From Nitrososphaerales archaeon (GTDB taxonomy: Archaea; Thermoproteota; Nitrososphaeria; Nitrososphaerales; UBA213), in contig CBDAOC010000020.1 in the NCBI GenBank assembly GCA_965197925.1, forward strand, positions 1,001,497 to 1,065,496: 64,000 nucleotides of DNA, written 5' to 3'. The notes under the pieces are model-generated. The model ran no database searches. It was given only the letters and a program-made list of their open reading frames with translations, and was not told the DNA's origin. A program made the translations under genes and the position numbers. Positions 19,441 to 40,786 of the stretch are shown piece after piece (position 1 is the first letter of the stretch; the number at the start of each line of letters is the position of its first letter).

Positions 19441-19740
19441 GCATTAAAACATACTATATATATTATAAGCACTTCGTTCCTTCGTATCCACTGGCTACCC
19501 CCCCGAAAAATGTTAGTGTTACTTAACTTTTTATTTTATGTTAACTCTCCAGAACAGTTAATATCCCTAAATTTAGTTGTAGCGTTGTAAGTACAACGGT
19601 TTACGCATTAAAACATACTATATATATTATAAGCACTTCGTTCCTTCGTATCCACTGGCTACCCCCCCGAAAAATGTTAGTGTTACTTAACTTTTTATTT
19701 TATGTTAACTCTCCAGAACAGTTAATATCCCTAAATTTAG
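19441..19740. repeat. Perfect 136-bp direct repeat (19441-19576, 19605-19740) with 28-bp spacer
   Basis: Both copies read identically; spacer contains CGTTGTA-AG-TACAACG. Confidence 0.95.
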
Positions 19741-21478: not shown

Positions 21479-22570
21479 GAGGCTTGGGCGTAATTTAGTT
21501 CGAAACGATAAGATCAGGTTTCAATTTTCATTGGTAATGTGTTTAGCTCAGACTCCATTACTTCTTCGTATATTATTTTTGATTGGTGTGATTTGGTCAA
21601 AACCTAATAGGAAAAGGGGTAGACCATTTTATTATTCTCCTACAGTTATGGTAGATGCTTCATCGTTAGAGTATGGATAAGAATACCAAGCAACAATGCT
21701 TTGTATGAATATTTTTCGATAGACATGCCATACAACAGGAAGGTAATGAAGGCATGTGGTCTTGATAGGTTGCCAGACAGAAGAACATTCGACAGAAGGT
21801 CAAGGCCATATCAATTGACATAAGATCAAGGATAGATGTTATGGGTATGCTCTTCATAAAAGATGGGTTGGTAGACCCAGCCATAATATCCGTTGACAGT
21901 TCATTGTTGAAAGCAAAGGGACATGTATGGCATAGATCAAACATGAAGAAGAACGAAGTGCCACGCTCCGGTATAGATACAGATGCTCGATGGGGATTCA
22001 GCAGAACCAAGGGATGGGTATTCGGATACAAGATGCATCTAGCATGTAGTACTGGTTCGTTGATAGTTCCATTATCAGCTGATTTCACAACAGCTAACAT
22101 TACTGATAACAAGATGTATGAAAGCATAACATCTTCATTGCCTACAGGAATGGTAAGGTATGTTGTAGGAGATGAAGGATATGATGATCACAAGTTATGT
22201 GATTTCAGCAGGTATAGAGGGTATCCAGTATTCCCATTGGAAAGGTACAAGCATACTACAGATAATAATAGACTGGCATTGCTGCGGTTCTATCAATCTG
22301 AATTTAGACAGCATGTATATTCTCGGAGGAGCATAAGCGTTGAACCATTGATAGAGCAGATAAAGGATGTATTTGATATAGACTCATTACCAGTTAGAGG
22401 ATTTGATAAAGTAAGGAGCATCGTTCTGATTTCTATATTGCTATACCAGCTGATGGTATACTACAACTACTTGACAGGAAGACCATTAAGGGCATTGAAG
22501 CACATGTTGGGAAGTTAATCAATCAGAGGCATCAAGTTATTTTTGTTATATGGAATAATGCTCATACCTC
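21479..22570 (+). mobile_element. IS type A copy 2 (1092 bp) with 8-bp target duplication
   Basis: Ends GAGGCTTGGGCGTAATT / AATAATGCTCATACCTC; ATATAATT at 21471-21478 and 22571-22578; DSS, GYKMH, GDEGYD and VEP motifs; 5' frameshifts. Confidence 0.95.
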
Positions 22571-25898: not shown

Positions 25899-26778
25899 CA
25901 ACTGATCCCAAAACTGATCATTTAGTGAATAATTGACGATCATTTGGATCTATTTGCAATGCTGCCCGTAGCAGATCATGAAATTTCAGGAGATAACAGG
26001 TGAACAATGGAAGATGATATCACCGCATCTCCCCAAGCCAGCCAGAACCGGAAGGCCAAGGGCAGACGACAGAAAGACAGTCAACGGAATCCTGTTTGTC
26101 GGGATAACAGGATGCAGGTGGACTGGGATGTCACAAAGGTACGGCTCCAAATCAACTGCGCACCGCAGACTGCAGAACTGGCAGCGACGTGGAATATGGA
26201 AGAATATCCTCTCCGCTGCAGTCAAATCAGCCCACAGATCAGGCAAGATGCAGCTGCAAAAAACGGTCGATTCGTCATCAATTCCGGCCAAAAAAGGGGA
26301 AGCGTCATAGGATACAACGGATTCAACAGGATTTCAGGCACAAAAATACACGTTGCGGTGGAACAAAACGGACTGCCAGTCTCAGTAGTGATGGGTCCTG
26401 CAAATCAGCATGACTCTGCAAGATTTGTAGACGTGATGGATGGCATCTCACAATATCTGGATGAGAGATCTATCAGAAAAATTGCGCGGTGCCAAGCAGA
26501 CAAGGGCTATGATGCAGAATTCATCAGGAAATACCTCACCAAAAGAAAAATCTCTGACTGCATACCTTACAGAAAAAACAGTAAGACACAACAACAAAAT
26601 GATGATACAGAACAATACCTATACGGCAAGACGCGCTATGTTGTGGAGAGATTCTTTGCCTGGTTGAAGAATGGGTTCCACAGAACCAGGATCAGATATG
26701 AGAAGAATGCACAAAACTATCTGGCATTTGTTATCATTTCGTCGATTATGATGTATTGGAGAGTATTGGGATGACTTT
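25899..26778 (+). mobile_element. IS type C copy 1 (IS5 family, two-ORF -1 frameshift type)
   Basis: Imperfect 16-bp TIRs, AAT duplication at both flanks, slippery AAAAAAG at ORF junction, VDSS/ADKGYD/VERFF motifs. Confidence 0.92.
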
Positions 26779-28801: not shown

Positions 28802-30560
28802 CTAATATTCTTGGGGGCAGTTGGAGACAGTTTCAACCGTGAGACATTGATCGGTACCAATCCTTCCATCTAGTTTGCCTTCACCACCAGCTCCTAAAAG
28901 TAAATCATCACCTTAGTTTCCTTCAAGGTCATCATTACCAGAACCCCCGAAGAGTCGATCGTTACTAACACGTCCAAAAATTTGATGCCATCTTTACCGC
29001 CAAACAACTCGTCATTATCGAAACCTCCGGATAGCCTATCGGTCCCGATACCTCCAAACAATACATTCTCACCCGGGCCACCAAATATCATATCGTTGCC
29101 CTCAATGCCATATATCCAACTCATCTCAAAACTAACCATTTAGACAATTTTTAGCGACCATTTAGATCCATGAATAGCGACATCTAAAATTATTTTATGA
29201 AATTCCAAGAATTATCAGACAAACAGTGGAGTATGATGGAATCACACATACCACCACATGCAAAAACTGGCAGGCCTAGGGATGATGATAGAAAAATCAT
29301 TAACGGAATAATCCATGTTCTAACTACTGGATGCCGATGGGACGATATGCCAAAAAGATATGGTGATGATTCTACTGCAAACAGAAGGTTAAACAAATGG
29401 CAACAAAAAGGAATCTGGAAAAAGATTCTATCACGTACTATTCACTCAGCACATAAATCTGGCAAAATTAATCTACAAAAAATATCAGTTGACTCTTCAT
29501 CCATTCCTGATAAAAAAGGGGCAATGTAACTGGATATAATGGATTCAAGAGAATAACAGGTACAAAAATACATGCCGCAGTAGAGGGTAACGGATTTCCA
29601 ATATCCATACTGTTGAGTCCAGCAAATGAACATGACAGTACAAAATGCATGGATGTTACAGGATCAATTTCAGACTATCTTGATGATGATTCAATACAAC
29701 AGATAGAATCAGTTTATGCAGACAAAATGATGCAAAATACATCAGAATGTATTTGTGGGATAGAAATATTGCATGTTGCATCCCATACAAAATAAATTCC
29801 AAGTTCATCTTGCAAAATAATGATTACAAACATTACAGCAAGACAAGATTTGTAGTTGAGAGATTCCTTGCATGGCTCAAGAATGGATTTCACAGAACAA
29901 GAAGCAGGTATGAAAGAACGGCAGAAAACTACCTGGCATTTGTTAATCTTGCATCATTTTTGATGTATTGTAGGGTTTTGAGATGAGTTGATCGTGTCTC
30001 CCTCCACTACCGTAAATTATATCATTACCAATACCATCTATAATATCATCATCGCCGGGACTACAACAGACATTGTCGTTGCCGACCAAGCCATGTATTA
30101 CATCAACTTCAGGAGTTCCCAGTATAACATCATCAACTTCAGTTCCTAGTATGGTACCCGGTAACCTATCACACATTTGTGGTTCGGCCACACATTGGGT
30201 ATTTATGGTGACATCTGTATTTTCTATAAAGGCGTCAGTGTCAAATGTGTTAAAGACCACATCAGATATGGAAGCAGGTGTGTCTGTTACAGGAGAACCA
30301 ATATCTTTAACGTTAGCATTGCTATCTTCTAAAAAGTCTTCACTGCAATCACCTACTTTGCTCTCTGAATCAAGCTTGAGTATCCAGACATCTCTGGAAC
30401 CCGTGCCAGATGATTCCGTAAATCCCAACGCCACATATCCTCCATCAAAAGTCTGCTGTATAGAATTTCTACTCGAACTGTCAAAAAGAGGATCGCCATA
30501 GGTCTTGGACCATGTACTCTGTACTGCAGGTTTCCACTAATTGCAATGGCATAGTCGGCA
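28802..30560 (-). pseudogene. RTX/haemolysin-type Ca-binding repeat surface protein, interrupted by IS and frameshifted
   Basis: GGxGxD repeats on both sides of the IS; removing the IS and one ATC restores DTIYGIEGND. Confidence 0.8.
29117..29990 (+). mobile_element. IS type C copy 2 (IS5 family), degraded
   Basis: Perfect TIR CAACTCATCTCAAAAC, ATC target duplication, homologous to 25899..26778. Confidence 0.93.
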
Positions 30561-31384
30561 GTAGAACACCAAGTAGCAATATAGCAGTCATGGCCTCATA
30601 TCCTGCTAGCATGCATTCAGTATACAGTAAAATAATTTATTTCTTATTGAAGGCGAAATAGGTATCGCCAAGCCCGTACTTGGATATATCACGTTCTTTA
30701 GGATGTAGTACGTGGTAAATGAATAAGCAAATAATATCGTAATGGACCCTCCATAACAAGAAGCAGAAACCCACATTCAGCACTTACATTCATTTCATGA
30801 TAATTGATTAAAAGAGGGGGAAAAACCTGATCAAACGCCGTAATAGCTCCAATGGAGAAAAAGAAGGGGAAAATGTTGGTTCCAAACCAAGTCTAGCATA
30901 TGATTCCCCCTTTACTTATCCCAGTCCAGAGAGGGGAAGGATTGAGTTTGAAACTGGATCTAGAATTTTTGCAATCTGCAGGGTAAGATCAAGGATAAAA
31001 CTACCAGCAGAAAGTTGTACAATTTTGAAGATAACATAATGATTGTAAAACGATTAATTAAAAGTGGTTTTATTTAGAAAATATTATACAAACACGACAG
31101 GTAAGATGATCGTCGTTAAGGTTCTTATACGGTTATAGGTATGAATATTAAAATTGAATTGTTGAACCAACTGTTAAACTTGGCAATATTTGTATATCCT
31201 ATTCCCTGTATGCAAATTCATTGAAATATTGGGTGATGAACATTAAGAGAAAATTAAAATGAAATACGAGTCTAATTTTTTACTTTCATCACATTATTAA
31301 AATAATCATGAAAACCTGATTGATCCCTAACATCATTATATTACACTAGAACGTTTATGAGGTTTAATTTCCGCTAAAAATAAA

Positions 31385-32931
31385 ATGAAAAATAATGTTC
31401 TTAAACTTACAACGCTGATTGCGGTAATTGGAAGCTTGATGGTTCCTTTGACAGCTAATGCACCTCCTCTAACTTGCAACGGTTTTACTGCTACCATAAT
31501 AGGGACAGATGGTGATGATATACTACTGGGGACTTTAGGTAATGATGTTATAGTTGCTTTAGGTGGAGATGATGACATCCATTCAAGGGCTGGTGACGAT
31601 GTGGTATGTGCTGGGGCTGGTCATGATGAGATTTTCGCATGGGAAGGTAATGATTTTGTTGATGCTGGCACTGGAAACGATCATATTATCTCCTATTCAG
31701 GCAACGACGTTGCCTATGGGGGCGAGGGATGTGACGAAATAGGAGGAGGTCCAGACGCAGAGAATACGACTCTTGTAGATGACGATATAGTATATGGTTT
31801 CTATCCAGATGATTACACGCCGGATTGGCACAGTTTGGTTCCTACCACGCATCCAGGTTCTCGGTCTCCAGCAAATATGACTGGAGGTGACAAAAATGAT
31901 GAAGTTCATGGCTCAAACTATGGAAATGATCGTGTATTCGGAGACGGGGGCGATGACAGATTATTCGGTCATTGGGGTGATGATAGGGTAGTGGCAGGTC
32001 GTGGAGAGGCGCGGATAGTGATGGTGATAGCTGCCTTGCAGAGGAAGTAATAAACTGTCTAAGTTCAGGAGAGGTGATAATACCCATTGTCACTTCAATT
32101 ACACTGGATCTTCCCTCTGAAGTTAACATCACCGAAACTGTAAAAATCACTGCATCCATATTGGAATTCTCCGGGAACGCAGCTAGAAATGTCACTATAG
32201 ATTTCTATGATTCAACTACATTGATAGGCTCTAACCGCTCTGATACACTTGGCATGACAAGTATTAGTTACACACCCGTAGCAGGTGCACATCCGATCAA
32301 AGCTGAACTTATGGCAAACGAACATTACGAGGCCAGTGAAAGTCCTGTAAGAATCTTGAATGTGATTGACCCTAGCGTTACCGGGACTGAATGTAACGGT
32401 ATAACTTCTACAATTATTGGTAGAGGGAGATGATTTTCTGATTGGAACAGAGGATAATGATGTGATTAATGGACTTAAGGAAACGATATAATCAGAGGTC
32501 TTGATGGTAATGATCGTATCTGCGGTGGTGAAGGCTTGGACCTGCTATTTGGTGGTGCTGGTGACGACGTAATTTTTGGATTTACAGAGGATGATACAAT
32601 ATACTTTGGGCCTGGTGATGATCTAGGATATGGTGGGATAGGTGACGATAGTCTATACGGAGCCTCGGGAAATGAACTATATGGCGGTGCGGGGAATGAC
32701 ACAATCTTCAGTGGTGGTGCCAATGATTTACTGTTTGGTGGTCCGGGCAACGATCTGATGATAGGTGGAGATGGAGGAGATATATTATTCGGTGAGCTTG
32801 GTGACGATGAGTTATTTGGTGAATCTGGCGGAGACTTCCTAAGGGGTGATGATGGAATAGATAGCGTGGATGGTGGAGTAGATTTCGATAATGATACTTG
32901 TTTTGCCGAGATCAAAGTTAACTGTCCATAG
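31385..32931 (+). pseudogene. Secreted RTX-like Ca-binding protein with Ig-like domain, frameshifted into pieces
   Basis: Signal peptide, CNGFTATIIGT repeated as CNGITSTIIG, GGAGND repeats across ORFs 31385, 32074 and 32536. Confidence 0.82.
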
Positions 32932-33226
32932 ACCGTCAATTGGAACGTTACACAATTTATTTTTTTATTTTTTTATTAAACCTACAATTAGACTTGGGTT
33001 TGATGTTTTTTAATCCCTTTCATGGTGTTGGCCGGTCATAGATATTAATTCAATGAAGAAACATTTGAGATATTTTCCTTAAACTGTTTCAATGTTAGTC
33101 TCTGCATGTAAGTAAATTGTAATTAAAAAATAAATAAAAAACATTGTTGGACTGATGAAATTGGAAATGATAATTCCAAAGGTCATCTTCTGGACCTGTT
33201 ACTTATTGTTGTGGTATTAAATAATT

Positions 33227-34310
33227 AAGGCTTGGGCGTAATTTAGTTCGAAACGATAAGATCAGGTTCTAGTTTTTATTGTTGATATGTTTAGCCCAGA
33301 CTCGATACTTCTTCGCATATTATTTTTGATTGGTGTGATTCGGTCAAAACCTAATAGGAAAAGTAGACCATTCTACTATTCTCCTACAGTAATGGTGAGA
33401 CGCTTCATCGTTAGAGTATGGGTAAATACCAAGCAACAATGCTTTGCATGAATATTTTTCGATAGATATGCCATACAACAGGAAGGTAATGAGGGCATGT
33501 GGTTTGGATAGGTTGCCAGACAGAAGAACATTCGACAGAAGGTCAAGGCCGTATCAATTGACATAAGATCAAAGATAGGTGCTATGGGTATGCTCTTCAT
33601 AAAAGATGGGTTGGTAGACCCAGCCATAGTATCCGTTGATAGTTCATTGTTGAAAGCAAAGGGACATGTATGGCACAAATCTAGCATGAAGAAGAATGAA
33701 GTGCCACGCTCGGGTATAGATACAGATGCTCGATGGGGATTCAGCAGAACCAAGGGATGGATATTCGGATACAAACTGCATCTAGCATGTAGCACAGGTT
33801 CGTTGATAGTTCCATTATCAGCTGATTTCACAACAGCTAACATTACTGATAACAAGATGTATGAAAGCATAACATCTTCATTGCCTACAGGAATGGCAAG
33901 GTATGTTGTAGGAGATGAAGGATATGATGATCACAAGTTATGTGATTTCAGCAGGTATAGAGGGCATCCAGTATTCCCATTGGAAAGGTACAAGCATACT
34001 ACAGATAATAGACTGGCATTGCTGCAGTTCTATCAATCGGAATTTGGGCAGCATGTATATTCTCGGAGGAGCATAAGCGTTGAGCCATTGATAGAGCATA
34101 TGAAGGATGTATTTACCATAGATCCATTGCCAGTTAGAGGATTTGATAAAGCTAGGAGCATCGTTCTGATTTCTATATTGCTATACCAGCTGATGGTATA
34201 CTATAACTACTTGACAGGAAGACCATTAAGGGCATTGAAGCACATGTTGGGAAGTTAATCAATCAGATGCATCAAGTTATTTTTGTTATATGGAATAATG
34301 CCCATGCCTC
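33227..34310 (+). mobile_element. IS type A copy 3
   Basis: Both TIRs present; flanks differ (AAATAATT / ACCTAGCT). Confidence 0.93.
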
Positions 34311-34647
34311 ACCTAGCTATCCAATTAAAAAGAGAAATTGGTTTGCAAGAAATATTTCTATTGCTGGAATGTATCATCTTACATCAAACTATGGTGAGTC
34401 TTATGCAAGGCCATTGATTATTATAGCATTAGCATTGCTTGGTTCAACGTTTTTCTTCCTTTCTGTAGGTACTGAGCGGTCAATTGAGGCTACTATTATA
34501 AGAAGTGTCAATTCATTCATTCCGTTTTTTAACTTTCCTGATGATGCTAAGCTAATTGATTATATTCTTGGGATGATATTGTTACCAATTGGCGCAACAT
34601 TGTTCATAGCCATGAGAAGAAAATTAGAACGGAGATTTAGACATTAG
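34311..34647 (+). pseudogene. C-terminal membrane fragment (YGES motif, as in pentapeptide-repeat/ion-channel-like proteins) truncated by IS
   Basis: TSNYGESYARP + 2 TM + RRKLERRFRH; the listed start lies inside the IS end. Confidence 0.55.
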
Positions 34648-34686
34648 TAATAATAATTAGAAAGGATTTATTCAAATTTTCAAGAA

Positions 34687-35060
34687 TCACTTGTCTGAGG
34701 GAATATTAGGTTTCGGTTCGTTGAAATCTAAATCATTTAATCTTCCGTCAATGTACATCATCAACTCTCTTGTCTTTATCTCGATTATGCTAGACCACTG
34801 ATGCTTTTTATTCTTATAGATAATCCTCATTCCAAGAAGTTTTCCAAGTTCGGTTAACAAAAGTTTTACAGCATTTGGTCTTAATCTAATGTTTCCTTCA
34901 TTAGTTTCTGAGAAATCTTTTTTCTTTATCAATCTCCTTAATGCTATTTTGGTTACAGTGATATCAACTAACCATCTGAAGGGTTCCATCAAGTCATAAA
35001 CCAATGATGCCTTATTGTTGTAGTTTTCATATATTCCCTTGATGAGATCGTCAAACTCAT
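34687..35060 (-). pseudogene. cas1: C-terminal third of a Cas1-family protein, casposase-like
   Basis: KASLVYDLMEPFRWLVD Cas1 motif; tail W..II..K..EL..Y..G...LDF.EP.P; N-terminal part missing. Confidence 0.8.
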
Positions 35061-35073
35061 CTTATTCTACGAG

Positions 35074-36573
35074 TCATACTTCCACATAGAGCACAAAAGT
35101 ACCCTTTCCTGAAGCTATGACATGCAATCCTTGATCACCTGTAAGAACTATAGCATTATATTTTTGGGCAATATCTACCAACTGTTCGTCATTGGTTCTT
35201 GACTCATTGACAGATTCTTTCAAATAAGCGAGGCCGATTCTGCCTATTGATGCATCATCAGCAATTCTTTCAAGTTCTGCTTTCCCTCCTTGGTTATCAC
35301 ATTCTTTGGTTACTTCTGGATGCAAGAGGAAAGTAAAATTTTCAAAGAATGCTCCCTTATCAAGATCTTTAGAAATAGTGTCAGACAATATTACATTACT
35401 ATCTGGAAGGAGATGTCCATTGTAGTACAGTAATGTTGTATTTAGATCTCTAATAATCTCATTACAGGATATGCATCTACCTTCCATAAAACCTACAATA
35501 TTAGAAGTAACCCTTGCTGATTTTGCTATATTTCCACATGAAGGACACAATATACTTAATGTGGTTACTGACAGTTTACCTTCACGAAACAAGTTTTGCG
35601 AATCAGATGAAATCAGTTCATTTCTGATAGGTGGATCCTGCTTCTCAATTTTACCAGTATTACCATCTAACTCTCTCACGTTAGCGAAGGATTGTTTTAC
35701 AAACCAAGGCCATGGCTTGCCAGTCTTCTTCCATCTTGTCAACCACTTTATTGTCAAAGGGTCTCCGGCATTGCCGCTACCTACTGGACAATCTTCAAAT
35801 GCAACCCTTCTTCCAATGGCCTGAATAATCTTCTCTCTTTCTCCCTTGGCTATTATGCTAGCGAGCTTTGTTTCCAAATATCTGTCATCTGCTTTGCTTT
35901 GTACGCGGATGGTTGCTCCTCTTTTTTGAAGTGTGTCCAGAAATAACGAAATGTTTCTTCCAACACCATAATCATCTAATACAATGCTACAATTCCCCTC
36001 TGGAACTCTTCTTAGAAGATGTGAAATCATTCTCTGATAAACTAGATCCATGATCTTGTTAATGTTGAACCTATCAGTATGCCTTGGTAGAATCTTTTCT
36101 ATGATGAAAGATAGTCCTTTCAGTTTTAGATGATCTATTTCTAGATATAATTGATCCCAGTATTGTGCTTCTCTTTTTTTCTTGGTGTCTGTCACACTGA
36201 TTAAATTTTCTATTTCCTCTTTTAGGGATGCAGGAAATGCAACGCCAACTAACACGGAGTGCCCAATAAATTCCCCCTTACCCGTTTCATCTAACCCTAT
36301 AAGAAATTCACTTTTTGTTGTTTGAAAACCTGAACCAATTAAATCAGAAATCTTATTCCTTACTGCTAAAACATATTCATCATTAGTAGGATTACTAAAA
36401 AGTGTTCCCGTAGAATACTGGGTAAACACAGCTTTATTGATCCTTATTCTCCAAACTTCTTTTGATGTTTCAGAAATTGACGAATCCTCGATACCACAAT
36501 TTGTTATTAGTAATTTTTTAACTTCTTCTAATTTATTATCAGGAATATTCCATTTTCTTGGTTTTGGCTGCAT
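35074..36573 (-). CDS. RNase HII/HIII-like nuclease fused to Zn ribbon and PIN domain
   Basis: GLDETGKG, VLDD, KADD...ASIIAK; CPSC/CISC; PDSNVI, TKE, NDE, LTGD. Confidence 0.8.
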   Translation of the reverse strand: MQPKPRKWNIPDNKLEEVKKLLITNCGIEDSSISETSKEVWRIRINKAVFTQYSTGTLFSNPTNDEYVLAVRNKISDLIGSGFQTTKSEFLIGLDETGKGEFIGHSVLVGVAFPASLKEEIENLISVTDTKKKREAQYWDQLYLEIDHLKLKGLSFIIEKILPRHTDRFNINKIMDLVYQRMISHLLRRVPEGNCSIVLDDYGVGRNISLFLDTLQKRGATIRVQSKADDRYLETKLASIIAKGEREKIIQAIGRRVAFEDCPVGSGNAGDPLTIKWLTRWKKTGKPWPWFVKQSFANVRELDGNTGKIEKQDPPIRNELISSDSQNLFREGKLSVTTLSILCPSCGNIAKSARVTSNIVGFMEGRCISCNEIIRDLNTTLLYYNGHLLPDSNVILSDTISKDLDKGAFFENFTFLLHPEVTKECDNQGGKAELERIADDASIGRIGLAYLKESVNESRTNDEQLVDIAQKYNAIVLTGDQGLHVIASGKGTFVLYVEV

Positions 36574-36995
36574 GAGAACAATATATTAATTTCATCTTTA
36601 AGTCTTTCAAAGATAACAAATAATGTTCATTTGTTTTCTATACATTTTATGAAAATCCACAATGGTTCTAAATTCTTGATTTTGCAATAGCTTTGTTATG
36701 ATATGCGCTGGGTAACCATGGATTATACATTCATTAGTAATCGAACTCAGGTAAAGATTAGATTGCCAATCAATGGGGAACATCATCCAAGTATTATCTT
36801 CAACCAAAATCAACATTTGATTGATGGTATATGCTACAAAGTTGTTACTGCCAGGAAAGAATGTTCTCAAAACTACCAAATAATCCATTGATCTTAAGTG
36901 GTAAGAATAATGTAATTACCTTTGAAATTAAAACCTGCGTTTTATAACCTAAAATCATTTAAATATTCAGTCAAACATAAGTTGGCAGAATTCAA

Positions 36996-37866
36996 ATGAC
37001 GAATGAGGTCAATGTAAGTAGAATCGAAGAAATTTTAAATGTTAAAGCAGAAGTCTTCTCAGAAGAGGGCGTTGTCAAGGCAAGCTTCCCGCGTACAGAC
37101 GTAAAGGTGACTATTGATAACTGGCCCATGAAACCTTTTATGGGTCTTGCTTCATGGGCTGCCTTTCAGAAAGGTGTGAAAGAAGGTATTGAAGTTATGG
37201 TCATGAGTGACCTAGTGCTCTTTGAAGATAAAGTGAATTCTGTTATGAGTGCAGCTCTGGAAACTTTGCAAGTGACCGCTTTACACAACCATTTCTTCTT
37301 TGACAATCCTAAAGTGTATTTCATGCACATTAGTGGTGAAAGTGAGCTCGATGCTTTTGCTTCAGGTATTAGAAAGGCCCCTGGATACTGTTAATGCAAT
37401 CAGGACAACTAACACCCAGCCACAAACATCATTCAAAGGACAACAGATCCCTATTGATAATGATATTGATGGCACAACTATTGAAACAATCCTCAGTGTT
37501 GGAGGTACGGCTAAAGATGGAATGTTCAAGGTTGTTATTGGACGCAAGACAAGTGCTTCATGTGGTTGTCTGGTGGGCAAAAATATGGGAGTAAATACTT
37601 GGGCCGCTTTTGCAGGTAACAATGACAACGCATTTGTAGATGGTGATTTTGCAGTCTTGGAAGGTGAACTGCAACCAGTACTCAAAGCTCTAAGAGCAGT
37701 TAGTATTAACATAGTTGCGATTCATAATCATATGACTTTTGAGCAGCCACGCATTATCTTTCTACATTACTGGGGCAAGGGCAAAGCAACTGATTTAGCT
37801 AAAGGTTTGAAGAGTGCTTTGGACAAAACTCACGATCCTGATCTATTAACAATGAAGTCTCTATGA
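36996..37866 (+). pseudogene. DUF1259/LppY-LpqO-like tandem-domain protein, frameshift near 37380
   Basis: Two repeats of WAAF...A(L/I)HNH...F(M/L)H. Confidence 0.78.
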
Positions 37867-37978: not shown

Positions 37979-39637
37979 CTATCGGACAAGTGGTGTAACA
38001 GAACCCTTTACACTCATATCGGTATCCATACCAATAACCTCCCAGTCAACAACTGGCTTCGCCGAATCTACTTTGAGTAAGAAGTACTGCTTGTCATCAG
38101 GCTGTAAAGGATGTTTGGAACCTGAAAATGTCACGGTGTTAAGGTCTCCCTCCTTCTCCCATTTATTGAATGCCTTGGCTGCCTTGATTGAATCTCCAAT
38201 AGTCAAGGTAAAAGCATCAATACTTACAGCGCTATCGCCTACATTTGTCAATCTTACGATTATTAGATCTTTGATTTGTTTGGCGTGCACTCTCACTTTT
38301 AATGGATCTGGCACCAATTTATTGGCGAGAATCTCGCTGGCCAAGCTCCGCCCTGCCTCCTGTCCTTCTTGATTGCTGAATTCGAAGTGGATGCCAGCAA
38401 AGATTCTGGCTCGTCCGGCTTCCTGAGCGGCATCGGAGAAGCTCTCAAAGGTTCGCGGACCGGCAATCGCATCATCTGCCTCGAAGGTAAAGCTCATGTC
38501 GTCCCAGCCAAAGAAGCCAGCAAGGATGGTCGAGCCAGCCCCAGCTAAGACGCTCTGTCCGGCGACGTGTTCTGGTGAGCCACCCTTGCTACCATTACGC
38601 GGCTCCCAGTTCGGGTCCTTCTCAGTATCCGGATTACCATCAGTGTCGGCGTTGCGGATAGCCGTCTGCGGCCGCCAGAAGAAGTAGACAAGCTTGTCAT
38701 CTGAATAAACCCTCACCGAATCGGCCATGGCCATGCCCAACAACGCGAAGAGTCGTGCGCTTTCCGACAAGGAGAGGTCCTGTTGGTCCGCAACTAGGAT
38801 GGCGATCTTGATCCACTCGCCTGGTGATCTGGAGCTACCTGAGCCACCCTTCCAGAACCGAAAGATCTCTTCCTTTTCCTGGTCCGGTATTGCTAGGTTA
38901 CCCAGTTCCTTCACTTCGTTGAATGCATTAGTATACTCCTCGCTATCCAATGGCGGTGGACCCGCACTTCGGTAAATGAGTGGGTCAGCTATAGCGAACG
39001 GTCGCATGTTAGCATTATGTGCCGAGGTGAAATCGCTTTGGAATTCACCTGCCTCGGAGCGTGCTGATTCTACCATTTTCGGCGATGTTCCATCGTCGGC
39101 CCGCAGTTCCACGACTTGCTGTCCGACATTTGCGCCCCATGATAGGCCGGCCTCCACATCATCCTTGTCATCATCACCAATGGCATCCAGGTCAGCAGCC
39201 ATCTGCGCGTCGTAGATGTCCTCGCGGTCGGCCTGCTCAGCAGAGAGCACTACGTGAGCAGCGGCTATCGCCGCAGCGCGCCGATCAGCTTCGTTTGGTG
39301 CGTCATCTGGGCTGACGAGGGCAAAGTCAAGTGTGGAGCTGCCATCAGCCCTAGCTATACCGTTGATCGCGTCATACATAGCAATGTTGACCTTGGCATA
39401 AAGACGGGCAGCCGTCGAGGAGCCGAGCTCCTTTTCACGCACGGTGTCCAAGGCTAATTCGTTCCACGTTATGATTACGTTCTCCGGCTGCATCTCGGCG
39501 AATGCTTTTGAATTACTCACAATCTGTTCATAGTCTACCTGCCTTGACAATGATGACAAGCCCAGCGTACCTACGAGGAGAATAGCTGCAATTGAACCAA
39601 CTGCAATTAGCTTCCAGTTATTGTAATTATACATCAT
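37979..39637 (-). CDS. Secreted vanadium-dependent haloperoxidase / PAP2-superfamily protein
   Basis: K-x6-RP (KLVYFFWRP), PEHVAGQS, RIFAGIHF; AMYDAINGI. Confidence 0.82.
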   Translation of the reverse strand: MMYNYNNWKLIAVGSIAAILLVGTLGLSSLSRQVDYEQIVSNSKAFAEMQPENVIITWNELALDTVREKELGSSTAARLYAKVNIAMYDAINGIARADGSSTLDFALVSPDDAPNEADRRAAAIAAAHVVLSAEQADREDIYDAQMAADLDAIGDDDKDDVEAGLSWGANVGQQVVELRADDGTSPKMVESARSEAGEFQSDFTSAHNANMRPFAIADPLIYRSAGPPPLDSEEYTNAFNEVKELGNLAIPDQEKEEIFRFWKGGSGSSRSPGEWIKIAILVADQQDLSLSESARLFALLGMAMADSVRVYSDDKLVYFFWRPQTAIRNADTDGNPDTEKDPNWEPRNGSKGGSPEHVAGQSVLAGAGSTILAGFFGWDDMSFTFEADDAIAGPRTFESFSDAAQEAGRARIFAGIHFEFSNQEGQEAGRSLASEILANKLVPDPLKVRVHAKQIKDLIIVRLTNVGDSAVSIDAFTLTIGDSIKAAKAFNKWEKEGDLNTVTFSGSKHPLQPDDKQYFLLKVDSAKPVVDWEVIGMDTDMSVKGSVTPLVR

Positions 39638-39762: not shown

Positions 39763-40786
39763 GAGGCTTGGGCGTAATTTAGTTCGAAACGATAAGATCA
39801 GGTTCTAGTTTTTATTGTTGATATGTTTAGCTCAGACTCGATACTCCTTCGTATATTATTTTTGATTGACGTGATTCTAGTCAAAACCTAATAGGAAAAG
39901 AGGTAGACCATTCTACTATTCTCCTACAGTTATGGTAGATGCTTCATCGTTAGAGTATGGGTAAGAATACCAAGCAACAATGCTTTGCATGACCAGACAG
40001 AAGGACGTTTGATAGAAGGTTCAAGGCCATATCAATTGACATAAGATCAAGGATAGATGTTATGGGCGTGCTCTTCATAAAAGATGGGTTGGTAGACCCA
40101 GCCATAGTATCCGTTGACAGTTCATTGTTGAAAGCAAAGGGACATGTATGGCACAAATCAAACATGAAGAAGAATGAAGTGCCACGCTCGGGTATAGATA
40201 CAGATGCTCGATGGGGATTCAGCAGAACCAAGGGATGGGTATTCGGATACAAGATGCATCTAGCATGTAGTACAGGCTCATTAATAATACCATTGTCTGC
40301 CGACCTAACTACAGCAAATATTTCTGATAATAACATGTATGAGAGTATAACAGCATCATTATCAGAAGATGTTAGATACATTGTGGGAGATGAAGGATAT
40401 GATGATCATGAGTTATGTGATTTCAGCAGGTATAGAGGGCATCTACTAGTATTCCCATTGGAAAGGTATAGGCATACTACAGATAATAATAGACTGGCAT
40501 TGCTGCAGTTCTATCAATCGGAATTTGGACAGCATGTATATTTGCAAAGAAGCATAAGCATTGAACCTTTGATAGAGCAGATAAGGACGTATTTGCTATA
40601 GATCCATTACCAGTTAGAGGATTCAATAAGGTAAGGAGTATTGTATTGTTATCTGTATTATTGTATCAGGTAATAGTATTACAATCATCTAGCAGGAAGG
40701 CCATTAAGGGCATTGAAGCACATGCTTGGAAATTAATCAATCAGATACATCAAGTTATTTTTGTTATTGAATTATGGCCATACTTC
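39763..40786 (+). mobile_element. IS type A copy 4, most degraded
   Basis: Internal deletion near 39990, 3' frameshifts, eroded right TIR. Confidence 0.9.

Follow-up and report, generated by a model that had tools for sequence, protein, structure and literature searches.

The stretch of DNA analysed here, referred to as the window, comprises 64,000 nucleotides of contig CBDAOC010000020.1 from a Nitrososphaerales archaeon (assembly GCA_965197925.1, positions 1,001,497 to 1,065,496). On its reverse strand lies an open reading frame (ORF) at 35074..36573, which starts with ATG, encodes 499 amino acids followed by a stop codon and is free of internal stops. The encoded protein, hereafter the fusion, begins with an RNase H3-type N-domain, continues with a type 2 RNase H and a Cys4 zinc ribbon, and ends in a PIN domain. 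Each of these domains is known; it is their combination that appears to be new. The parts of the gene, with the evidence for each, are as follows.

35074..36573, minus strand: whole fusion ORF (ORF list, homologs mostly of ~500 amino acids, AlphaFold2 model)
36310..36573, minus strand: residues 1-88, RNase H3-type hybrid-binding N-domain, called TBP-like in the RNase HIII literature (profile, Foldseek, rnhC alignment)
35644..36309, minus strand: residues 89-310, type 2 RNase H catalytic domain, with GKGE at 98-101 and GSGN at 265-268 (PF01351, archaeal RNase HII alignments)
35464..35547, minus strand: residues 343-370, Cys4 zinc ribbon (CPSC ... CISC) within a linker region, 311-385 (conserved cysteines, model)
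35077..35418, minus strand: residues 386-499, PIN nuclease domain (Foldseek, profile matches, conserved acidic residues)

The RNase H part is recognized by the Pfam model RNase_HII (PF01351) over residues 92-299 (E 3.9e-17, 63.3 bits against a cut-off of 25.8). The more narrowly curated NCBIfam models score below their cut-offs: rnhC (TIGR00716) aligns to residues 33-252, starting inside the N-domain, with 49.3 bits (cut-off 161.2), and TIGR00729 for RNase HII reaches 84.7 bits (cut-off 123.3). As both curated cut-offs are missed, the fusion is not an equivalog of either rnhB or rnhC. An alignment of 26 fusion homologs served as input for AlphaFold2 and for a profile search of Protein Data Bank (PDB) sequences. 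The model has a mean predicted local distance difference test (pLDDT) score of 91.3 and a predicted template modelling score of 0.88, with no low-confidence segment, and its top Foldseek match in the PDB is 4py5_A (E 2.1e-13, 304 columns), the RNase H3 of Thermovibrio ammonificans with bound RNA/DNA hybrid, followed by archaeal RNase HII structures. The profile gives the same picture: positions 10-259, including the FTxYxxGTL strand region, align to residues 4-237 of 4py5 (E 5.8e-21), and the archaeal RNase HII structures 1eke, 1uax and 3p83 align to positions 89-308. In the N-domain, W41, R42, T51 and G56 are invariant across the 26 homologs.

For the C-terminal part, Foldseek returned the PIN structures 3i8o, 3ix7 (TM score 0.68 to target), 1o4w, 5f4h, 2hww and SMG6, and the profile search (hmmsearch) matched 3i8o at positions 387-492 (E 8.8e-5) and 1o4w (E 1.6e-3). 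No Pfam PIN model reached its threshold, the only Pfam result for this part being Mut7-C with 12.7 bits, below the cut-off of 23.3. Over 114 residues the domain is 27% identical to the N-terminal PIN domain of an archaeal PIN-ATPase ORF. In the region before it the model shows two beta hairpins (E352-357, E363-367), and C343, C346, C367 and C370 probably bind zinc.

A word-indexed search identified 336 homologs of the fusion, of which the best 120 were listed and then aligned for residue counts. Nearly all of these 120 are ~500 amino acids long, with 42-88% identity over 95-100% of the query; their source labels read 'ribonuclease HII' or 'hypothetical protein'. Among them, the RNase H residues D95, E96 and D200, which together with D229 align to the active-site regions of 4py5 and 1eke, are each present in 120/120, and position 229 is Asp in 115 and Glu in 5. 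The zinc ribbon is kept to a similar degree (C343 120/120, C346 118/120, C367 120/120, C370 120/120), as is the PIN site (D391 120/120, E424 120/120, D462 117/120, D480 119/120). This conservation of the catalytic residues and the four cysteines argues that both nuclease sites are under selection. An earlier note on this DNA, written from the letters alone, had read the gene as an intact ORF with an N-terminal TBP-like module of the RNase HIII type, a complete RNase H acidic set, CPSC and CISC motifs and a PIN domain with four acidic positions, and every one of these elements is borne out by the alignments and structure comparisons above.

The residues around the RNase H site also bear on its likely substrate. 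The DE pair is followed by G98-K99-G100-E101, with K99 in 119/120 and E101 in 120/120 of the same best homologs, and T. ammonificans RNase H3 shares this GKGE motif in the profile alignment. The GSGY stretch of archaeal RNase HII reads GSGN in the fusion, N268 being present in 118/120. According to one study, RNase H3 enzymes carry Asp, Glu or Ser at the site of the Pro that follows GRG in RNase H2, and an RNase H2 in which this Pro is changed to Asp or Glu and the junction Tyr to Ala cuts runs of ribonucleotides in hybrids and does not cut at single ribonucleotides (PMC3597693). Because E101 and N268 replace the Pro and Tyr of RNase HII, the specificity is expected to be RNase H3-like, and the fusion is predicted to cut RNA stretches in hybrids without taking part in ribonucleotide excision. 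Recognition of a ribonucleotide had been put forward previously as a possible trigger; the sensing of single ribonucleotides is unlikely, since the two residues with which RNase HII reads them are the ones replaced. Given the full conservation of its active site, the RNase H domain is probably a cutter and not a mere sensor.

Despite the similarities, the fusion differs from each of the enzymes that it resembles. Like the RNase H3 (RNase HIII) proteins of T. ammonificans (4py5), Aquifex aeolicus (3vn5) and Bacillus stearothermophilus (2d0a), its best match in both structure and profile, it has an N-terminal hybrid-binding domain ahead of a type 2 RNase H core, the GKGE motif after the DE pair and no junction-reading Tyr. 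In contrast to these two-domain proteins of ~300 amino acids, however, the fusion has 499, with an additional zinc ribbon and PIN domain of ~190 residues; it is only ~24% identical to them, falls far below the rnhC cut-off (49.3 against 161.2 bits), and the C-terminal helices of its RNase H part resemble those of archaeal RNase HII. The archaeal RNase HII enzymes (1eke, 1io2, 1uax, 3p83) share with it the catalytic domain and the following helical region over 89-308, with the acidic residues kept, whereas the fusion has GKG-Glu in place of GRG-Pro, Asn in place of the Tyr of GSGY, a score below the TIGR00729 cut-off, and additional domains at both ends. The PIN domain shares its fold, its four acidic residues and a weak but specific sequence similarity with the PIN domains of archaeal PIN-ATPase(-KH) proteins (MJ1533, 3i8o; 5f4h; NCBIfam PRK13764) and with the VapC-like PIN protein AF0591 (1o4w). 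Unlike these, the fusion has neither an ATPase nor a KH domain, carries a zinc ribbon before the PIN domain and has no adjacent antitoxin gene. VapC-like PIN domains are typically growth-arresting RNases. A VapBC toxin could be ruled out for the fusion, as no antitoxin partner is conserved in 29 loci, where the largest shared cluster consists of restriction-modification (R-M) subunits, found in 5/29.

Among known defence proteins, two come closest to the fusion in concept. AbiI, an abortive infection protein of Lactococcus, is predicted to adopt a class II RNase H fold superimposable on 1EKE, and the description, in the part available, sets AbiI apart from the fusion by reporting neither a PIN domain nor an RNase H3-type N-domain (PMC13064643). 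In the RNase LS (RnlA) family of 'two-headed' RNases, a TBP-like RNase HIII domain is fused to HEPN in a defence context, and the proposal for this fusion is that it directs the RNase to the RNA within RNA:DNA duplexes (PMC3710099). Here the effector is HEPN instead of PIN, and an RNase H catalytic domain is not part of the protein. The fusion matched none of the families of PADLOC-DB v2 at E<=1 (whether that library has an AbiI model was not checked), in agreement with the earlier impression that it belongs to no named defence system. Full-text literature searches gave no description of an RNase HII/HIII-PIN fusion, although a mention in a supplementary table is possible, and none was found in the portions available of the classifications of PIN domains (PMC5499597) and of RNase H-like proteins (PMC3985635).

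The host assembly (2.9 Mb in 20 contigs, 98.7% complete) encodes a separate RNase HII of 214 amino acids (131.7 bits) and an RNase HI (110.3 bits). As the genome has these enzymes of its own, the fusion is not its housekeeping RNase H, and the separate rnhB whose existence had been proposed as a check is indeed there. Neither of the findings that the earlier note named as refuting it has been made, the fusion not being the only RNase H of the genome and its C-terminal domain being a PIN fold with all four acidic residues. When 60 related genomes (8 from the family of the host and 52 from its order) were searched with the full protein, no full-length fusion was found. The matches were ordinary RNase HII proteins of ~215 amino acids at 24-33% identity, save in two genomes, one with a PIN-less short form (43% identity over residues 5-317) and another with a weaker short match (29% identity). 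A search of 400 further species of the phylum with the zinc ribbon-PIN part likewise gave no fusion; its single match, a weak one (genome G309), was rejected as a PIN-ATPase. The fusion was thus found in none of 460 other genomes of the phylum, with the full-length query used in 60 and the zinc ribbon-PIN query in 400. In this lineage the gene is not vertically inherited, and it is an accessory gene.

Relatives are encoded at 78 loci, with one genome taken per GTDB species, distributed patchily over numerous phyla of bacteria and archaea. Full-length forms, with identities of 40-49%, carry the bacterial labels Chloroflexota, Acidobacteriota, WOR-3, Dictyoglomota, Thermotogota, Aquificota, Nitrospirota, Planctomycetota, Pseudomonadota, Bacillota, Rhodothermota and Thermodesulfatator (a cultured strain), and the archaeal ones Archaeoglobaceae, Thermococci, Thermoplasmatales, Methanomassiliicoccales, Undinarchaeota, Asgard and Nitrosopumilus; as labels of metagenome-assembled genomes (MAGs) some of them may be wrong, although contigs as long as 1.39 Mb and 558 kb are included. 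PIN-less short forms of ~307-345 amino acids, consisting of the N-domain and the RNase H, also exist. A maximum-likelihood tree was built quickly from the N-terminal 310 residues common to both forms (26 fusion and 35 short rows). It is unrooted, has support from the Shimodaira-Hasegawa-like approximate likelihood ratio test (SH-aLRT) only and contains an aberrant long branch (L042). Fusion and short forms are interspersed in this tree, branches with good support require at least 4 changes between them, and closely related fusion genes occur in different phyla, as in a clade of WOR-3, Planctomycetia, Nitrospirae and Dictyoglomaceae rows. The intermixing and the cross-phylum clades indicate that the PIN head was gained or lost repeatedly and that the fusion moves horizontally. 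Short forms of 330-373 amino acids from Nitrosopumilaceae/Cenarchaeaceae (L030, L031 and L036 from Nitrosopumilus and Cenarchaeum, and L082 from genome G043) are sister to the full-length fusion of a Nitrosopumilus (L007) with 99% SH-aLRT support, which suggests loss of the PIN head within this lineage. The zinc ribbon-PIN module alone gave 53 phmmer hits among 1.84 billion representatives; in all those of ~460-530 amino acids the module sits at the same C-terminal place, and the shorter ones are perhaps fragments or split genes. As far as this single-sequence search reaches, the module seems specific to the fusion.

The neighbourhood of the fusion was analysed in 28 full-length loci, taking two genes on either side and leaving 95 neighbouring proteins after removal of three pieces of the fusion itself. 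ORFs were called with a simple greedy picker, a crude procedure that split the fusion in two at L028, L029 and L032. At 6/28 loci (L003, L013, L014, L023, L024, L049) a type I R-M gene abuts or overlaps the fusion on the same strand. Pfam further identified GmrSD at two loci, Cas3 with Cas4 at one and Cas6 at one, as well as type II, type III and DUF1156 methylases, M78-peptidase/DUF4411, an AbiEii-like ATPase/nucleotidyltransferase, Schlafen-AlbA, HNH and serine recombinase proteins. With PADLOC at E<=1e-8, 32/95 neighbours match, including type I, II and III R-M, Cas3, Cas4, Cas6 and GmrSD (HEC-05/06); 4 of the 32 matches are generic (ABC ATPases, a small-molecule methyltransferase, TPR), and specific matches remain in 17/28 loci. 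As a control, 35 loci of the PIN-less short form were treated in the same way. Here 9/135 neighbours match PADLOC, none of them R-M or Cas and all of them generic (Ser/Thr kinases, DUF488, cysteine desulfurase, a helicase, QueC), and the short-form loci keep the same neighbours within lineages. The difference between fusion and short-form neighbours is significant in a Fisher test (p = 1.7e-7 by gene, 1.5e-3 by locus), but the loci are not independent, so that these p values overstate the case: L010 is nearly identical to L011, and L013, L014 and L024 form one clade. The enrichment in defence islands, proposed beforehand as a check on the gene's role, is thus seen in the comparison of 32/95 with 9/135 neighbours, with the reservations that the sample is small and that 11/28 loci have no specific match.

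Two arrangements among these loci may be described individually. In an Aquificaceae genome (L023, 8405-9724), a protein with Schlafen-AlbA_2 and HATPase_c_4 domains and the fusion both lie between hsdM and hsdS-hsdR of a type I R-M operon, so that a single operon holds two embedded passengers. In two Archaeoglobus MAGs (L010 and L011, 560-3622) the fusion directly follows a DUF1156 methyltransferase of 1020 amino acids, which matches the PADLOC models HmaB and DUF1156_MTase.

Taken together, the comparisons suggest a family that is accessory, horizontally mobile, found preferentially in defence islands and often in an operon with type I R-M genes, and for these reasons a defence role appears most likely. 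In its position the fusion resembles a chromosomal defence-island gene that would act alone. We tentatively favour the reading that it is an unnamed single-gene defence nuclease aimed directly at RNA:DNA hybrids, which we consider quite possible, if a little short of probable. In such a mechanism the N-domain and the type 2 RNase H core would engage an RNA:DNA hybrid and cleave its RNA strand at consecutive ribonucleotides, while the Cys4 zinc ribbon would tether the PIN nuclease, which may cut the single strand adjoining the hybrid, be it a transcript tail, a flap or a displaced strand. The targets could be hybrid intermediates of invaders, such as R-loops, replication primers and reverse-transcription products, which would provide defence against viruses and plasmids. 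What has been observed is the architecture, the conservation of both active sites, the scarcity of the fusion in relatives and its defence-rich surroundings; which substrates are cut, that the two sites cooperate and that the protein serves defence is what we infer. The proposal of a candidate defence nuclease in the earlier note thus gains from the absence in relatives, the patchy spread across domains of life and the defence-rich neighbourhood relative to the control; the mechanism attached to it, with recognition of a hybrid or ribonucleotide as the trigger of PIN activity, would go beyond these results.

Several points weigh against a hybrid-directed defence nuclease. The support for a defence role is purely computational, and parts of it depend on crude greedy ORF calling and on taxon labels of MAG contigs that can be wrong. 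Among the 28 loci, the 11 that lack a specific defence match within two genes include several with housekeeping neighbours (GatB, Thi4, transketolase). No partner gene is conserved in an all-against-all BLAST comparison of the six neighbours on either side at 29 loci, where the R-M cluster mentioned above is the largest shared one and is followed by one methylase at three Archaeoglobaceae loci; in the absence of a conserved partner there is no hint of how self-damage would be avoided. For a defence gene, 40-50% identity between homologs from different domains of life is a high value. The PIN domain has its closest relatives in archaeal PIN-ATPases, among them a protein described as a Holliday-junction helicase (5f4h), and with relatives of this type the substrate could be DNA structures and the role repair. 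In the window itself the only defence-related neighbour is a dead piece of Cas1, and a PADLOC search of the 29 ORFs between 20 and 48 kb gave two generic matches only.

Several of these points would be accommodated if the fusion were not an immune protein at all but a maintenance enzyme, that is, a horizontally traded nuclease for R-loops, primer removal or repair, whose PIN domain trims flaps or branched DNA after the RNase H cut. The tie of the nearest PIN relatives to Holliday-junction processing and the housekeeping neighbours at about a third of the loci fit this explanation, as do the PIN-less relatives (~307-345 amino acids), which occur in lineage-conserved non-defence contexts, resemble ordinary RNase H3-type enzymes and are intermixed with the fusion in the tree with at least 4 forced changes. 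A maintenance function is nevertheless difficult to reconcile with a host that already has RNase HI and RNase HII, with the failure to find the fusion in 60 relatives or 400 members of the phylum, and with an enrichment of defence neighbours that is specific to the PIN-bearing form. On balance we regard it as improbable.

The same defence-rich context (32/95 against 9/135 PADLOC neighbours) could also reflect an abortive-infection sensor-effector, a reading near to that of the earlier note, in which hybrids that arise only during infection are sensed by the RNase H3 module and release the PIN domain onto host and viral RNAs, so that growth stops. The placement in type I R-M operons recalls PrrC, an anticodon nuclease encoded in type I R-M loci and kept latent by its R-M partner. 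The typically growth-arresting action of VapC-like PIN domains (PMC5499597) and the predicted RNase HII fold of the abortive infection protein AbiI (PMC13064643) point in the same direction. However, the RNase H catalytic residues are invariant, which would be needless in a pure sensor; 16/28 loci have no R-M gene within two genes according to Pfam; no antitoxin-like partner is conserved, and nothing indicates allosteric control. We therefore think it unlikely that the fusion works in this way.

A more far-reaching reading can also be formulated, which we put forward with somewhat more doubt. The fusion could be the founding member of an unnamed group of single-protein immune nucleases, in which a complete RNase H3 module reads the hybrids of invaders (R-loops, primers, reverse-transcription products) and a tethered zinc ribbon-PIN head turns this attack into one that kills either the invader or the cell; it would have been recruited repeatedly into type I R-M operons, in the manner of PrrC, to provide a further layer of defence, and the PIN head would have been lost several times to yield an ordinary RNase H3. 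Viral and plasmid replication and reverse transcription necessarily pass through RNA:DNA hybrids, and, to our knowledge, few of the defence systems described have at their core an RNase H that recognizes such hybrids. If the fusion is a defence protein, the sensing or cleavage of hybrids joins the immune strategies, and a further nuclease embedded in type I R-M operons is added to those known. If it is not, it still represents an undescribed RNase H3 variant and illustrates how a housekeeping nuclease acquires and sheds a second head. Either way the family is directly testable, being compact (one gene, ~500 amino acids), well conserved and confidently modelled (pLDDT 91), with two active sites that can be mutated.

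The surroundings of the fusion in the window contain the following features.

34684..35030, minus strand: Cas1 relic, C-terminal third only (ORF 34687..35004), matching Cas1 models at profile positions ~229-283 (Pfam 229-281 of 283)
33215..34315, plus strand: IS4/IS5-type insertion sequence (IS) with transposase ORF 33584-34258 (DDE_Tnp_1), adjoining the Cas1 relic
21841-22518, 26007-26774, 29197-29529, 33584-34258 and 40062-40601: within 20 kb, five transposase ORFs of the IS4/IS5 type, matching DDE_Tnp_1 or DUF4096
28894-32433, both strands: several short ORFs with RTX repeats (HemolysinCabind) and a bacterial Ig-like domain
36996-37394 and 37300-37866, plus strand: two overlapping ORFs with one DUF1259 (PF07485) each
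37979-39637, minus strand: intact-looking ORF of 552 amino acids with a weak DUF6851 match, in a block of 48.9% G+C against ~36-40% around it

The fusion had been placed directly upstream of a Cas1 relic, and the downstream ORF is indeed the C-terminal ~1/3 of Cas1. The homology to cas1 ends at 35030, ~44 nucleotides from the stop codon of the fusion, and from this break we place the fusion at a rearrangement breakpoint inside a dead cas1, which fits its acquisition by recombination into a decaying defence locus. The relic is 81-85% identical in nucleotides and 76-80% in protein to Cas1 fragments on two other contigs, C17 (L095) and C18 (L096). The host genome holds 2 full-length Cas1 genes and 4 Cas1 fragments, contig C20 (L098) being among the Cas1-bearing contigs. 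The adjoining IS is 93% identical in nucleotides to copies that adjoin two other Cas1 loci (L094 and L096), and on C18 it lies beside the 3' end of cas1, as in the window. The Cas1 copies could reflect paralogous CRISPR adaptation modules, or casposon-like elements, that have decayed time and again. The proximity to Cas1 to which attention had been drawn is therefore real in the window but not a trait of the family: cas genes occur within two genes of the fusion in just 2/28 other loci (L019, L024), and a recurrent CRISPR-Cas linkage is not observed.

As a whole, the region from 21 to 41 kb is IS-rich and eroding. The overlapping DUF1259 ORFs are probably one two-domain gene broken by a frameshift, the RTX ORFs resemble parts of a large secreted protein with repeats, and the block at 37979-39637 may be foreign DNA. 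With the Cas1 relic, the transposase ORFs, the RTX pieces and the split DUF1259 gene, the previous description of the neighbours as fragments holds in part; it does not extend to the gene at 37979-39637, nor to a molybdenum-cofactor operon further on, which appears intact.

Such surroundings raise the question whether the fusion belongs to a mobile element, serving its replication or an anti-defence function, e.g. the destruction of hybrids between CRISPR RNA and DNA. The copy in the window lies in an IS-rich stretch with its 3' end against a truncated cas1, and serine recombinases are neighbours at L021 and L032. In IMG/VR (2.9 million viral contigs), by contrast, none of 76 pattern matches was confirmed as a relative; tblastn against the PLSDB plasmids and GenBank phages found no relative, a fold search of BFVD gave no match at E<=0.001, and no mobile-element partner genes are conserved, all of which makes a mobile-element gene very unlikely. 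Whatever the family does elsewhere, the gene might in this genome be an unexpressed or functionless passenger of a decaying region. The degraded surroundings agree with this, and no obvious promoter could be assigned from reading the upstream sequence alone. Yet the ORF is full-length with every conserved residue, and the stretch 34600-37000 is held near-completely by contigs of 8 sequencing runs and, for at least half of the sampled words, by 10 runs from 4 studies, which suggests a stable locus; no RNA run is listed among the runs that hold it. We consider a functionless passenger hardly probable at all. The region resembles a graveyard of CRISPR and IS remains in which one acquired nuclease gene stayed intact.

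Tandem Repeats Finder detected no CRISPR-like array in the window. It did identify a perfect tandem duplication at 19441-19740, with a period of 164 bp, 1.8 copies and a 100% match.

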